Of a stretch of 64,000 nt of DNA, positions 3,960-54,950 are shown piece by piece. Under the pieces are notes generated by a model. The model saw only the letters and a list, made by a program, of their open reading frames with translations, had not been told where the DNA came from and ran no database searches. The stretch's first letter is position 1. Every line of letters starts with the position of its first letter. Source of the stretch: Eledone cirrhosa. Taxonomy: Eukaryota. The position numbers and the translations under genes were made by a program. The stretch spans positions 24,490,001 to 24,554,000 of the forward strand of contig OZ024759.1 of the NCBI GenBank assembly GCA_964016885.1, in the 5' to 3' direction.

Positions 3960-4080
3960 TAAAGAACCTGATAAACCTCCAATGGATGTTAAAAAAGATA
4001 CTCAATACGTTAGTAGAGTATAGGCATGTTTATTATATTATAAAAATCACTTCTATAGCACGAGAACTCTTTCATTCGTG
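3960..4080 (-). mobile_element. Degenerate HHR-element fragment (P3-like: HHR 3' half plus tail)
   Basis: Minus strand reads CGAATGAAAGAGTTCTCGTGCTATAGAAG...ACTCTACTAACGTATTGAGT; related copy at ~27285-27370. Confidence 0.55.
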
Positions 4081-5478: not shown

Positions 5479-5486
<8 letters not shown>

Positions 5487-5883
5487 AGATCAAAAGATGG
5501 TTAAAAGAGTTCCAAGTATTTTATTATGCGCATTTCAAAAACAAATATCATCATGGGATGATATCTGCGTTCTCATCAGATAAAATAGGGAGACATGATA
5601 TGAAGCTTAAAAAACGCTTGTGAGCAGTGAACATGTTGATTTAAAACTTCACTGCTCACAAGTGTTTTTTAAGCTTCATATCATGTCTCCCTATTTTATC
5701 TGATGAGAACGCAGATATCATCCCATGATGATATTTGTTTTGGAAATGCGCATAATAAAATACTTGGAACTCTTTTAACCATCTTTTGATCTTATATTAT
5801 TTATACTCCAGTCCTACAAACTGTAGAGTGCTACTTATCCGATATTGCATTGCTTTATTGTGCTACAATAAAACTCACCTCCT

Positions 5884-5885
<2 letters not shown>
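5479..5885 (+). mobile_element. Fold-back HHR element, family P2 (PLE pLTR/retrozyme-like)
   Basis: ~150-bp inverted arms 5479-5631 / 5648-5800 plus an ~85-nt unpaired tail; flanked by TA/CA microsatellite. Confidence 0.85.
5692..5762 (+). ncRNA. Type I hammerhead ribozyme (inverted twin 5517-5587, minus)
   Basis: Stem I UAUUUUAU/AUAAAAUA, core CUGAUGA (5700-5706), ~16-bp stem II, GAAA, palindromic stem III AUGCGCAU, predicted cleavage after AUA (5754). Confidence 0.85.
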
Positions 5886-5914
<29 letters not shown>

Positions 5915-6494: not shown

Positions 6495-6655
6495 AACGAA
6501 GGAAATGTGGTAAGGAACCAGGTGGACCATAACGCACCAGAGTACTCAATACTTAGGGTAGTAGAGTGGGTAATAGGAAAATGTTCAAGATCCCGACGGC
6601 AGAGCTGAAGCCGTTTCGACGGCTTGAGCTCTGCCGTCGAGGTCTTGAACATTTT

Positions 6656-7487: not shown

Positions 7488-7648
7488 AAGTTAAACAAGG
7501 TTCAATGAATACATCAAAGAATGAGTTTTACAATAGATTGGAAGCACTCAACAGTAAAGGTTTTCCAGAGTTATTAATATTAATTCAAAATATTAACAAT
7601 CTTGATCACAAGAATATCTATTTTGTTAATATTTTGAATTAATATTAT
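7488..7648 (-). mobile_element. Family P8 tail plus short palindrome
   Basis: Matches the reverse complement of the 54840-54945 tail; inverted AATATTAATTCAAAATATTAACAA arms. Confidence 0.7.
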
Positions 7649-7725: not shown

Positions 7726-7794
7726 AACCAAATAAATATATATATTTTTAAAAAAAATAAGACTTCAGTTGCATTTTCGATTTCATCTCTTTTT

Positions 7795-7866
<72 letters not shown>

Positions 7867-8900: not shown

Positions 8901-8984
<84 letters not shown>

Positions 8985-9178
8985 GTTATTCCGGGTTGAA
9001 TCGGAGATAACCACAGTAAGTAAGGTACTCAATACATTGCAGAGTATAAAAGTTTTAATATAGATGAGATTCTACAGGACTAGAACTGTTTCATTCTTTA
9101 GAAATCATCAGGAATCCTGATGATTTCTAAAGAATGAAACAGTTCTAGTCCTGTAGAATCTCATCTATATTAAAACTA
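8985..9178 (-). mobile_element. Fold-back HHR element family P3
   Basis: ~60-bp arms around 9113-9115; each arm has CTGATGA TTTCTAAAGAAT GAAACAG...CTGTA; tail on the left. Confidence 0.8.
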
Positions 9179-19281: not shown

Positions 19282-19458
19282 ATAGGAAACAGTAAGACCC
19301 CGACGGCTGAGCTCAAGCCGTTTCGACGGCTAATTCAGAATTAGCCGTCGAAACGGCTTGAGCTCAGCCATCGGGGTCTTAGTGGTTCCTATTACCCACT
19401 CTACTACCCCAAGTATTGAGTACTTTGGTCCACCTGGTTCCTTACCACATTTCCTTCG

Positions 19459-23152: not shown

Positions 23153-23156
<4 letters not shown>

Positions 23157-23573
23157 TGATATTCAATAAATGGAAACTATATTTATAAAACCATATTTAT
23201 TCTATTATATATATTTCAAGGGTACCAACATTTTGGTACGCTATCATCAGATAAAATACAAAATGTTTTATAAATATTTGACATAACTTAACGGTTCAAG
23301 TTATCCCTGGAAAGTTATCCCTTTCCAGGGATAACTTGAACCGTTAAGTTATGTCAAATATTTATAAAACATTTTGTATTTTATCTGATGATAGCGTACC
23401 AAAATTTTGGTACCCTTGAAATATATATAATAGAATAAATATGGTTTTATAAATATAGTTTCCATTTATTTAATATCAATGTATATTATACTCCAGATAC
23501 CTGTTGAGTGCTCTAAATCAATTATAAACATTTATATTTGTTGAATTACCAACAAATTGAATATCCCTTCTGC
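23153..23573 (+). mobile_element. Fold-back HHR element family P6
   Basis: ~162-bp arms 23153-23314 / 23321-23482 plus tail. Confidence 0.85.
23377..23437 (+). ncRNA. Type I hammerhead ribozyme (twin 23198-23258, minus)
   Basis: UAUUUUAU-CUGAUGA-stem II GUACCAAA/UUUGGUAC-GAAA-UAUAUA-UA-AUAGAAUA; base of stem II imperfect. Confidence 0.75.
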
Positions 23574-24299: not shown

Positions 24300-24477
24300 A
24301 TGTTTAACCCCGACGGCAGAGCTCAAGCCGTTTCGACGGCTATTTCTGGAATAGCCGTCGAAACGGCTTGAGCTATGCCGTCGGGGTTAAACATTTTCCT
24401 ATTACCCACTCTACTACCCTAAGTATTGAGTATCCTGGTGTGTTATGGTCCATCCGGTTCCTTACCACATTTCCTTC

Positions 24478-25589: not shown

Positions 25590-26029
25590 AATTATTATTT
25601 TTATATAAAACATAACTGTTAAGGATGGTCTTACTATTTTTTAATTATAATTACCAATACTTCTTTATATATTCATGTATATATATATATATATATGTAT
25701 GTATATATGTTTCTTTGTGTGTACGTATGTGCGTGTGTGTATATACAAGTGCATGAAGGCTTTTTTCTGTGTCCGTGTATATATATATATATGTATATAT
25801 GTGTAGCTATATATATGCATGTATGTTGTTGTGTATGTTTGATACATAATCATTTGATAACATAATAATTGGTAATGTAATGGAGACCGACGTCTCACGG
25901 AGTAGAAGGACGTCTTACTCGTCTCGTCGAAAGATGGAGAAGGCACGGAGTAACTACAGTTTCATGTTTGCCCTGCTTCTTCCTGGCAGAATTTACACAC
26001 ACATTTATATACATATATAAATGTGTACT

Positions 26030-26475
26030 TAAGGTAAATATTGATGCAATTCAAATCAAGCACTCAACGTACTTATTCCACATAGGAGTGACGGAGTATG
26101 TATCGAATAAGAAAAAGCGAAGTAGTTTCAGATGTTAAAGTCCTTTAATGATAATGCTGTGATACATATTTCAATGGCGACAGTGGCCACACGGTTCCGT
26201 GCGCCAGTGCCGCAAAATTGTCAGACAGCTTGTTACATAATAAGGTTATGTTTCCGAGGCAATCCAAATTGAATCGACATGGGAACGGACAAAGAGTCCC
26301 TTGTCGATTCAATTTGGATTGCCTCGGAAACATAACCTTATTATGTAACAAGCTGTGTGACGATGTCGCGGCACTGGCGCACGGAACCGTGTGGCCACTG
26401 TCGCCATTGAAATATGTATCACAGCATTATCATTAAAGGGCTTTAACATCTGAAACTACTCGCTTTTTCTTATTC
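26030..26475 (-). mobile_element. Fold-back HHR element family P9
   Basis: ~175-bp arms 26105-26279 / 26302-26475; HHR fold 26352-26425 (GCUGU/ACAGC stem I, GAAA-UAUGUA-UC); tail on the left. Confidence 0.85.
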
Positions 26476-28277: not shown

Positions 28278-28403
28278 ATCAAAAGATGGTTAAAAGAGTT
28301 CGATCTTATATATTATGTATACTCCAGTCCGACAAACTGTAGAGTGCTTCTTATCCGATATCTGCATTGCTTTATTGTACTACAATAAAACTCACCTCCT
28401 ACA
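28055..28403. mobile_element. Second P2 locus, split by (TA)n; HHR with CUGACGA core at 28090-28160 (minus)
   Basis: Homologous to 5482-5645 and to tail 5790-5885. Confidence 0.85.
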
Positions 28404-32998: not shown

Positions 32999-33140
32999 AA
33001 CAAAGGAATTGTGGTAAGGAACCAGATGGACCATAACGCACCAGAGGACTCAATACTTAGGGTAGTAGAGTGGGAAATAGGAAAAAGTATGACCCCGACG
33101 GCAGAGCTCAAGCCGTTTCGACTGCTATTTCTGGACTAAA
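32999..33140 (-). mobile_element. P1 element, non-palindromic 3' part
   Basis: Tail plus GACCCCGACGGCAGAGCTCAAGCCGTTTCG. Confidence 0.85.
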
Positions 33141-36355: not shown

Positions 36356-36554
36356 AACGAAGGAAATGTGGTAAGGAACCAGGTGGACCATAACGCACCA
36401 AAGTACTCAATACTTAGGGTAGTAGAGTGGGTAATAGGAACGAGTAGGACCCCGACGGCTGAGCTCAAGCCGTTTCGACGGCTAATTCTGGACTCATTAG
36501 TCCAGAATTAGCCGTCGAAACGGCTTGAGCTCAGCCGTCGAGGTCCTACTCGTT

Positions 36555-36849: not shown

Positions 36850-37015
36850 GAAAAAGTATGACCCCGACGGCAGAGCTCAAGCCGTTTCGACGTCTATTTC
36901 TGGACGTCCAGAAATAGCCGTCGAAACTTTTTCATATTTCCAACTCTACTACTCTAAGTATTGAGTACTCTGGTGCGTTATGGTCCATCTGGTTCCTTAC
37001 CACAATTCCTTTGTT
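36850..37015 (+). mobile_element. Fold-back P1 element with internal deletion
   Basis: Centre TGGACGTCCA; tail present. Confidence 0.8.
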
Positions 37016-42425: not shown

Positions 42426-42498
<73 letters not shown>

Positions 42499-42504
<6 letters not shown>

Positions 42505-42960
42505 AAATAAAATAAATAAGTCAAATGATTAAAATTTGGCTTCGTTTATTACTGCTATATATATTTCGGTAAAAGCCATCTTTGGCTGTGACCTCTTCAG
42601 GCAGTCCGAATTAATGTGGTAGAGACGAGTACACATGTTGTTGAGGTGTTTAACTTAGTCAATACTCTGATATGCCCAGTTCCTGGTAGGGTTGTTATTT
42701 TACTGAGGAACTGGTACATGTGTACTCGTCTCTACCACACTAATTCGGACTGCCTGAAGAGGTCACAGCCAAAGATGGCTGTCACCGAAATATATATAGC
42801 AGTAATAAACGAAGCCAAATTTTAAACATTTGACTTATTTATTTTATTTTATTTTACATTACTCCGGAGTAACCAAACCAACCTGCGCACTTCGTCGAGT
42901 GCTGCAATCCTTCTCTTAATGCTTACCTGTGTTTTCTCTTTTATACTTTATACTCCAAGA
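42499..42960 (+). mobile_element. Fold-back HHR element family P7
   Basis: ~140-bp arms 42499-42638 / 42716-42856, 77-nt spacer, tail (may extend to ~43310). Confidence 0.85.
42749..42803 (+). ncRNA. Type I hammerhead ribozyme (twin 42551-42605, minus)
   Basis: ACUGC-CUGAAGA-GGUcACAGCCA(aaga)UGGCUGUcACC-GAAA-UAUAUA-UA-GCAGU. Confidence 0.88.
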
Positions 42961-43955
42961 TTGAATGGAATTCTTACAAACTTGTGGAGTTACCCCTAAC
43001 CGTACGTTGAAACCATCCATGAAACTGGCTTTCTTAACCAAGAACTGGATCACAATAAGCAATTTTTTGCTTCTCTAACTATATTCATTTCATTTATTGA
43101 TTTATTGATAATTTATCTGAGTGTCCCGAATCTTCCATATCGAACTTATCGGTTATTTGGTTGATTGTAGACATATTCTGCGTGTGACGGTATTTAACGA
43201 TAGTTATAGCTCTAATTTATTTGAATTATAGAGCCCTCTGCCGCTCATCTCGAATTTTGTTTATCGTGAACTCGTGCGCCGATTTTTCGATACTCGATTA
43301 TTCTACTATATATATATATATATGAGGGTGTTAAAGTTTGCTTGAAGCATTGTGAAATGTGTAAAATATGTAGTTTAGAAAGCCACAACATATATGCATA
43401 TATGTGTATGGGGTTTCACTAGCTAGTCAGGTACGTGTGTGTGTATGTGAAGGTGTGTGTGTGTTTTCGTTTGTATCTTTGTATCAATCTATCTATATAT
43501 CACAGGATCTGTATATATATATATATAATATATATGCATGTATGTGTATGGAGTTTCACTAGCTAGTCAGGTACGTGTGTGTGTAGGTGTGAGTGTGTCT
43601 TCGTTTGTATCTATGTATATATATATATATATATACATATATGTTTATGCGTGTCTGTAAATGTATATATCTCTGAATCTGTATATGTATGCATGTGTAT
43701 ATATGCATATGGATGTATGTATATGTACAGGGGTCTCTGTAGCCAGCCATTTATGTGCATGAATGTGCCCCTAGTGAATAATATACCAGAAATAACCTGC
43801 GCTTTTACAGCAGGCGTATAACATATATTTTCGTACATGTAATCATTAATTAATTAATATTTCTTGAGTGATTTACGTTATAATCTGTGAAAGGTAATTA
43901 ATAATTCTACACCGGCAGAATAATTATTATACACACACTCATATACATATATATG

Positions 43956-48141: not shown

Positions 48142-48350
48142 CGAAGGAAATGTGGTAAGGAACCAGGTGGACCATAACGCACCAAAGTACTCGATACTTG
48201 AGGTAGTAGAGTGGGTAATAGGAACCAGTAAGACCCCGACAGCTGAGCTCAAGCCGTTTCGACGGCTAATTCTGGACAGAATTAGCCGTCGAAACGTCCA
48301 GAATTAGCCGTCGAAACGGCTTGAGCTCAGCTGTCGGGGTCTTACTGGTT

Positions 48351-48689: not shown

Positions 48690-48940
48690 AAACTGAGGTT
48701 TTTTTTAGAAAATGAAAAATAACCGAGGTGTCCTACACGAGTGAAAGTATAAAGAAAAAGAGATGAAATCGAAAATGCAACTGGAGTCTTATTTTTAAAA
48801 AAATATATATATTTATTTGGTTCCTTTACTTTTGAAAAGCAGAAGAACTGCGAAACCGGTAAAGGAACTAAATAAATATATATATTTAAAAAAAAAATAA
48901 GACTCCAGTTGCATTTTCGATTTCATCTCTTTTTCTTTAT
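48690..48940. mobile_element. Fold-back P11 element with a U3-A8 HHR core at 48832-48861
   Basis: ~80-bp arms 48748-48829 / 48859-48940; HHR sequence identical to 7690-7728. Confidence 0.8.
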
Positions 48941-49152
48941 ATATATATATATATAATCTTTCCTGAGTCCTGTATTTTCGTTGCTCTAGTGATGCGGCTG
49001 GACTGCCGATCGCTATATTTGATTTGCTAAGCTGTCTAAACGTATTGTTATTACTCTGGGGTACTTTTCCCCATCCGAGTGCTAAAGCTACAGACCAAAT
49101 TTGCATTCGTTAGCTTGGTCGCGAACTAAAGCTCCGTTAATGCTATACTAAA

Positions 49153-54570: not shown

Positions 54571-54950
54571 ATATTAAAATATAACTATTAATAAAATAGA
54601 TGTTCTTTTGATCAATTACATTTTATTATACATATTTCGGATGTACAACAGTACGTCCTCATCAGACAAAATATAACGATACATGACATACCCTGAGATG
54701 TTATATGGTTAAGATTTAATCAATATAACATCTCAGGGTATGTCAAGTATCATTATATTTTGTCTGATGAGGACGTACTGTTGTACATCCGAAATATGTA
54801 TAATAAAATGTGATTGACCAAAAGAACATCTATTTTATTAATACTTATATTTTAATATTAATAACTCCTGAAAATTATTTTTTCGTTGAGTGCTTCCAAT
54901 CTACTGTAAAACTCATTCTTTGACATAATCATCGAATATTGTTTAACAAC

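Follow-up and report, generated by a model that had tools for sequence, protein, structure and literature searches.

This locus raises the question of how Penelope-like elements (PLEs), whose life cycle has features described as ‘still undefined’ by Craig et al. (PMC8557442), make inverted insertions with a tail on one side only. One study has shown that a PLE reverse transcriptase (RT) starts at two internal sites, but not what places them. The window analysed here, a 64-kb stretch of the 3.0-Gb, (TA)n-rich genome of Eledone cirrhosa, contains short palindromes; these represent such elements inserted in inverted, 5′-truncated form, an arrangement known from earlier work (PMC8557442, PMC3846280). 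A hairpin that recurs in them is a candidate for placing the starts in Hydra-clade elements.

Bulged hairpins in the window

Scanning the window for ACTC, an inner stem of at least three pairs, a 2-nt bulge on the 3′ side and GAGT (the strict scan) gave 16 matches, compared to 1.9 ± 1.5 (maximum 6) in 100 local dinucleotide shuffles of the window. With the bulge altered to 0, 1, 3 or 4 nt, the same scan returned 0, 1, 4 and 2 matches, respectively. All nine hairpin stretches cited in a preliminary description of this DNA were found where it had placed them; the P8 hairpin and that at 49053–49082 fail the strict scan and match a covariance model (E 0.0016 and 2.4).

In family P2, the first hairpin (HP1, 5805–5831, + strand) pairs ACUC with GAGU around an inner CAG(U)/(A)CUG stem, with a 2-nt 3′ bulge and a trailing GC, this being the computed MFE structure. 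The sense arm (5633–5797, +; 3′ UTR/pLTR) contains a type I hammerhead motif (core CUGAUGA at 5700–5706 and GAAA at 5743–5746, by eye), and the inverted tail-less arm (5479–5631, −) merges into (TA)n at site 1. Site 1 (5798–5801, +) is the end point of tail-less copies and inverted arms, 4–7 nt before HP1 (26 ends with an interval of 4–7), and the tail runs from there to site 2 (5802–5886, +); in tandem copies (L081, L290–L304) a second hairpin (HP2) follows 6–8 nt further on, and then the ORF. Another P2 copy has its HP1 at 28321–28347 (+; strict scan).

Further families are present on both strands. P6 HP1 (23490–23511, +) has an inverted arm at about 23154–23318 and a tail to about 23578, and P8 HP1 (54864–54893, +) an inverted arm at 54571–54723 and a tail to about 54955, HP2 being seen in tandem copies of both. 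The P9 element (26028–26475; HP1 26060–26097, −) has a tail-less arm that stops 7 nt before HP1, and that of P3 (8982–9177; HP1 9027–9045, −) has its tail-less arm at 9112–9177 (+). P1 HP1 (24408–24431, +) was recovered by both the strict scan and the covariance model, with HP2 and ORF in its tandem copies; one or other search gave further P1 copies at 6544–6567 (−), 19398–19421 (+), 33048–33071 (−), 36405–36428 (−), 36943–36966 (+) and 48189–48212 (−), and the strict scan a P8-like copy at 7544–7571 (−). The tail behind P7 HP1 (42861–42902, +) is replaced in this copy by another family. The hairpin joined to it at 42952–42990 (+) was considered as the second hairpin of P7 and rejected, as it is the HP1 of a separate family, P10. 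A G-C variant, GCUC/GAGC, at 43209–43234 (+), about 75 nt before a (TA)n run, represents a further family. The region 42480–43310 reads as a chimeric insertion, in which the P7 arm and HP1 are followed by the second family's HP1 and tail, a third hairpin-bearing tail and (TA)n.

The preliminary description held that inverted arms stop 4–7 nt before ACTC, and within the ambiguity of the TA run this was upheld: the seven arms measured end at about 4–9 nt (P2 4–7, P1 5–8, P3 5–6, P8 5–9, P9 7 and P6 7 nt; P7 about 4–5 nt, by eye), given as ranges where needed because the arm merges into (TA)n. Two additional occurrences that it listed are both present; the one at 49053–49082 (+) is a degenerate HP1 of a further family with a (TA)n-ended tail, whereas the match at 4000–4019 (−) has neither an inverted arm nor such a tail and is decayed or unplaced. 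Its reading of the hairpin as the fold-back boundary holds for the fixed distance to the arm end but not for the apex, which lies elsewhere, from about 50 nt to >1 kb upstream; the hairpin marks the 3′ end of the element and not the fold-back apex. Both P3 apexes observed (8982–9177; L077:8640–8837) lie at the near-palindromic hammerhead stem I, so that the whole putative ribozyme core stands on both arms.

The ACTC/GAGT consensus first proposed describes a real hairpin with too narrow a core, which we extend to R-C-U-C-Y … R-NN-G-A-G-Y-RC. Most non-host families, and the second hairpin, have G-C as pair 1. Pairing further in than pair 5 is not obligatory (pair 6 is unpaired in 21 of 77 cells), and the conserved core thus comprises five pairs, the bulge and the trailing RC. 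Across 81 instances, pair 1 is G-C in 63 and A-U in 18, pair 3 U-A in 79 and A-U in 2, and pair 5 C-G in 51, U-A in 27 and U-G in 3. The expected covariation was found as compensatory pairs, except that pairs 2 and 4 are invariant C-G; the score of 0.42 (versus 0.17 ± 0.014) is partly circular, since the 81 instances were chosen for pairing. With anchors set by sequence only and one locus per family (families being 37 clusters at 70% identity), pair 5 was paired in 17/20 and 9/11. Its U-A form appears on separate branches of the tree and differs between HP1 and HP2 within one element. From a gapped alignment RNAalifold retained the outer four pairs alone. Taken alone, the hairpin has little thermodynamic stability, being the MFE structure in 5 of 10 folded instances, with z mostly above −2, and stabilisation by protein must be assumed. 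ACUC/GAGU also occurs in stem III of several Hydra hammerheads, an identity we rejected for this motif given the lack of a preceding GAA and the presence of a separate hammerhead about 45–100 nt upstream.

Hydra-clade parents and a second hairpin

The parent element was located by walking upstream from P2 copies; a Pfam GIY-YIG search, tried for the same purpose, returned Neptune-type elements, all without the hairpin. A full P2 unit has an ORF with RT and C-terminal endonuclease, and intact ORFs were obtained from tandem arrays of P1, P2 and P3. YRDD followed by Y-[IF]-G-x-T is found in P1 (L305/L306), P2 (L081, L309/L310) and P3 (L307); as the P2 protein has no Pfam match, its RT/GIY-YIG assignment rests on these motifs. 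All three proteins contain DKT and lack DKG, carry a CxCx5C linker (C-terminal CxxC and CxH being visible in the printed proteins), and have an RWK-type N-terminal motif that reads RWR in P1 and P3 and RWT or RWI in P2. The CX2-5CxxC finger is absent from P1–P3 and present in the Neptune-type controls L061, L063 and L064. These protein features, with DKT in place of DKG, define the Hydra clade (Craig et al. 2021, PMC8557442). In a quick tree built from P1–P3, 29 metagenomic relatives and three Neptune-type proteins encoded by the host genome, P1–P3 nest among the relatives and the Neptune-type proteins stand apart (support 100). Judged on sequence, P1, P2 and P3 are the 3′ ends of Hydra-clade PLEs.

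The insertion target of these elements is (TA)n. Their tandem period is about 3.5 kb in P1 and 3.9 kb in P2, where published Hydra-clade units are generally <3 kb; the additional length is due to long 3′ UTRs. P6–P9 are candidate members of the clade: tandem copies of P6 and P8 continue into an ORF start like that of P1–P3, and a single P6 locus yields a matching RT fragment. HP1 of a single family has 39,541 exact matches in the host genome. The hammerhead core is canonical in P2, P3 and most relatives, and the hammerhead motifs of these pLTRs are candidate ribozymes. P1, which is intact and very abundant, shows by eye a U3-A8 hammerhead core with a long stem II insertion (L305, about 60–130 nt before HP1), a known variant (PMC4209133).

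Each tandem unit is ordered as ORF, 3′ UTR, hammerhead, site 1, HP1, tail, site 2, HP2 and the ATG of the next ORF. HP2 lies 76–99 nt after HP1, just before the ORF ATG, in P1, P2, P6, P8 and P9. It is absent from ordinary tailed insertions, which end about 3–9 nt before HP2, so that it sits beyond the tailed end. In the host genome HP2 was predicted from the paired hairpins of relatives and then looked for, and it was found in loci unselected for the hairpin (L081 for P2, L349 and L352 for P9). The tandem search patterns demanded only the 5′ half of the hairpin (P1 477, P2 272, P6 4 and P8 34 matches), and most of the pattern-selected loci that were read have the complete hairpin and an ORF start. 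At the second site of P3 only a non-canonical, bulge-less GCAC/GUGC hairpin is present, with ends at 7–9 nt; for P7, no tandem copy was found among 11 loci. Two kinds of ORF-less array were also observed. In retrozyme-like arrays (L311:5400–6200, G000:C9; L252/L253), mini-units repeated in tandem, about 195 nt long in P3 and 257 nt in P1, keep hammerhead, HP1, tail and HP2, and a satellite at L381 (G000:C1:14,250,749–14,253,784) consists of units of about 51 nt, each with P1 HP1 and short flanks.

Relatives from other hosts, comprising 93 loci on metagenome and MAG contigs (77 + 16), carry the motif as GCUC-Y...R-NN-GAGC-RC. Of the 53 loci whose start is readable, 44 have it ≤75 nt upstream of the ATG, compared with 0/52 in each of two ORF windows and 0/53 in antisense, this last control being bulge-aware because a plain hairpin equals its own reverse complement. 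The hairpin-to-ATG distance in the 44 loci is 34–69 nt, and two hairpins lie 55–83 nt apart in 32 of the 44. The motif also occurs 20–130 nt past the hammerhead in 28 of 42 relatives, and 6 of the 14 without it enter (TA)n there. When a covariance model was run on 48 loci, most of them not used to train it, 39 matches were obtained, 35 on the ORF strand and many of them paired. Relatives were not found in viral contigs. Loci L234–L249 are Hydra-clade retroelements with (TA)n flanks in several bacterial MAGs; these contigs are probably animal host DNA binned by mistake.

The P1 unit junction has no match in Rfam, and the P2 junction gives nine weak sub-threshold hits, none of which includes the hairpins. 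For the whole window, the best 150 of 538 Rfam hits are nearly all microRNA families on simple repeats, all below gathering scores. Within Rfam and the full-text literature searched (subscription journals, Repbase and Dfam being outside this scope) the hairpin is undescribed. The duplicated RNA motif is real and, it appears, new to the literature, and refines a known mechanism.

Element ends and the pairing of inverted arms

Element ends were mapped against natural tandem copies in a strict sample of 464 kb, comprising the window and 40 stretches of 10 kb (10 beside the window and 30 elsewhere), ends within 14 nt before HP1 or HP2 being counted as site ends. Among 96 matches, 51 run into (TA)n: site 1 accounts for 27 of these, site 2 for 23 and another position for 1; the other 45, without a (TA)n end, were left unclassed, and many of these stop at subfamily differences from the reference. 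When all loci unselected on family were taken, 103 of 106 TA-flanked ends fell at site 1 or site 2; of such ends, 74 allow an offset of 5 nt and 72 one of 6 nt. The modal intervals of the individual families all contain 6, except for P3 site 2 (7–9) and P6 (two TA-flanked ends, at 8 and 12). Exact offsets are blurred because most sites are AT-rich and share TA microhomology with the target. At P9 site 2, where such microhomology is missing, 12 of 14 ends nonetheless stop at exactly 6 nt from HP2. The distance from arm end to ACTC is thus non-random, with ends clustering at sites 1 and 2 across the 464 kb. These observations support the earlier proposal of a conserved cis signal that sets the end of the inverted arm, through covariation, fixed distance and conservation across hosts, but that proposal captured only half of the picture, having missed the second hairpin at the tailed end.

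The position of HP2 in the 5′ UTR, 34–69 nt before the ATG in the 44 loci of relatives, invites a reading in which the hairpin would help the ORF behind it to be translated or transcribed, with the ends determined by the TA-like microhomology that AT-rich linkers share with (TA)n; most sites are indeed AT-rich and many ends blend into the TA run. HP1, however, is equally conserved though it lies away from any start codon, the P9 ends keep their exact offset at a site without microhomology, and the same offset recurs in five families whose tails (76–99 nt long) are unrelated in sequence. We therefore regard this reading as very improbable.

The two ends are not combined at random. Inverted insertions joined a site-1 end to a site-2 end in 32 cases, or 30 after removal of two duplicates (one double-counted locus and one tandem duplicate), compared with one tail-less/tail-less and one tailed/tailed pair; 19 further unselected pairs have an unclassed end. 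Under independent 50:50 choice this excess has P = 1.2e-7, and instability alone should not favour mixed pairs, since mixed and homotypic pairs both form long palindromes. By eye, 24 of 37 tailed P1 and P3 ends in the strict sample have an inverted tail-less partner and none has a tailed partner. This preference for mixed pairs suggests that one insertion event makes use of site 1 and site 2 together, from opposite nicks in the target.

A different view would make the hairpins RNA-processing signals, for cleavage or 3′-end formation, that yield two RNA 3′ ends 5–6 nt upstream at which RT starts as in LINEs. This predicts the same genomic ends, and RNA-seq read ends are reported to coincide with initiation sites in Anolis (Frangieh et al., PMC11167929). 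By itself, however, it leaves the mixed inverted pairs (30/32) unexplained, and a Poseidon element in vitro initiates internally and independently of the RNA 3′ end (PMC11167929); we consider it quite unlikely.

Some insertions consist of the tail only. Six of seven distinct loci that were read run from site 1 to site 2, and the corresponding start pattern has 805 overlapping matches against 151 at a single control 30 nt further 3′. Few 5′ ends fall at HP2 (9 overlapping matches, 2 loci). Both observations would fit cutting at the two sites, and hence an alternative in which the hairpins act as DNA: the GIY-YIG endonuclease would nick 5–6 nt upstream in single-stranded cDNA or extruded duplex, resolving a longer tandem intermediate, and the ends would be cut sites. 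Craig et al. see the tail as a product of ‘EN-mediated resolution’ (PMC8557442), and work cited by Frangieh et al. (PMC11167929) found the D. virilis tail to be needed for endonuclease cleavage of plasmids. Several observations make the DNA-level alternative unlikely. First, the motif is strand-asymmetric, with the bulge only on the 3′ side of the sense strand and 44/53 sense against 0 antisense occurrences. Second, U-G pairs are tolerated. Third, the nine overlapping matches for 5′ ends at HP2 contrast with several hundred uncut tandem junctions. Lastly, tail ends are RT start sites in the sole PLE tested in vitro (PMC11167929).

We favour positioning of the RT, over nicking by the endonuclease, as the likely role of the hairpin, and think it rather probable that the hairpin, present twice per Hydra-clade unit, holds the RT at each position and sets the start of copying just upstream, at 5–6 nt from the hairpin. 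In the scheme we propose, RNA transcribed through a tandem, or part of one, would carry both hairpins, each bound by the RT-endonuclease protein, probably as two subunits, and the endonuclease would nick both strands of the (TA)n target. One nick would prime cDNA from site 2, including HP1 and the tail, and the opposite nick would prime tail-less cDNA from site 1; the two 5′-truncated cDNAs would be joined head to head, often at palindromic stems. The product would be an inverted repeat whose one-sided tail is the interval from HP1 to HP2, with tail-only insertions arising when the site-1 arm has zero length. Since HP2 is downstream of the start, it would never be included at a copied 3′ end. 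Protein binding, initiation, dimer formation and the joining of the cDNAs are our inferences. To the full form of this scheme, a programmed twin priming in which identical hairpins 55–99 nt apart each dock an RT subunit and start cDNA about 6 nt upstream on opposite (TA)n strands, we give an even chance of being correct. A minimal, covarying, duplicated hairpin of this kind predicts that a shifted hairpin would shift the start, and that its deletion would abolish one class of ends.

Other clades and known systems

Neptune-type elements of the same genome have two ends 40–70 nt apart without the hairpin, which is thus no universal requirement for tails. Such ends lie in the window at 7774–7800, 48914–48940 and, on the reverse strand, 15226, and elsewhere near 1555 and 6534 (−) of L061, 1395 and 6205 (−) of L073 and 1373 of L074. 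Inverted copies of three Neptune-type families again pair tailed with tail-less ends. In two of the three, a GUGU-containing stretch of the tail is matched, by eye, by a complementary stretch with ACAC immediately beyond site 2, possibly a different landmark. When the Naiad/Chlamys consensi in the supplement of Craig et al. were searched with five 8-mers of the hairpin's 3′ half (missing any match split across line ends), the 5′ half was absent from every matching passage. As far as tested, the hairpin appears to be clade-specific.

The published Hydra clade (Craig et al. 2021, PMC8557442) shares with the elements described here the protein motifs, (TA)n targeting, pLTR tandems, the inverted 5′-truncated copy with a one-sided tail, and the hammerhead. 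By eye, the hairpin is present in four of the six new Hydra consensi of that study (from coral, sea cucumber and copepod): at the 3′ end in Hydra-2_Amil and Hydra-2_Ajap, as both copies at the 5′ end in Hydra-1_Ajap, and as variants at both ends in Hydra-1_Crog. The words ‘hairpin’ and ‘stem-loop’ are absent from the main text of PMC8557442. Craig et al. differ in deriving the tail from endonuclease resolution, and report shorter units (<3 kb, against 3.5–3.9 kb here).

The closest experimental counterpart is PAc, a Poseidon-clade PLE of Anolis carolinensis, in which reverse transcription begins at two internal sites, one at either end of the tail (Frangieh et al. 2024, PMC11167929). The PAc protein extends both target strands, requires RNA 3′ of the start and is predicted to be a dimer, and PAc resembles the elements here in its two tail-bounding sites, AT-rich target and upstream hammerhead (PMC11167929). 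In PAc, which belongs to a different clade, an ‘AC-rich stem loop’ is named at the start, the binding motif is left undefined and the tail is 30–40 nt long, whereas here the same conserved hairpin follows both starts at a constant distance and the tail is 55–99 nt. By eye, the RCUC/GAGY motif was not found in the PAc template given in the Methods of PMC11167929. That template does show, again by eye, a different stem of the same topology with a 3-nt 3′ bulge, just after the +111–118 start and inside the minimal RNA.

In RT phylogeny the PLE enzymes are sister to the telomerase RTs (PMC8557442), and the way in which PLE RTs are positioned on RNA bears on the origin of template definition. If our reading is true, the hairpin would be a portable RT-recruitment signal of roughly 20 nt for a telomerase-related RT, able to direct it to a chosen start on an engineered RNA, and would give the first structural rule for the PLE tail. 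The motif is in addition a simple tool for annotating both ends of Hydra-clade elements, which are very abundant in the host genome.

Structured RNA that binds an RT and sets the start of copying is familiar from the R2 3′ UTR, the hepadnaviral epsilon stem-loop and the template-flanking elements of telomerase RNA, and inverted insertions from two target nicks are familiar from L1 twin priming. In epsilon the element's own bulge templates the primer, in R2 copying begins close to the RNA 3′ end, and in L1 the second primer anneals at variable internal sites. Unlike in epsilon, R2 and L1, both starts here would be fixed by duplicated hairpins that lie outside the copied region.
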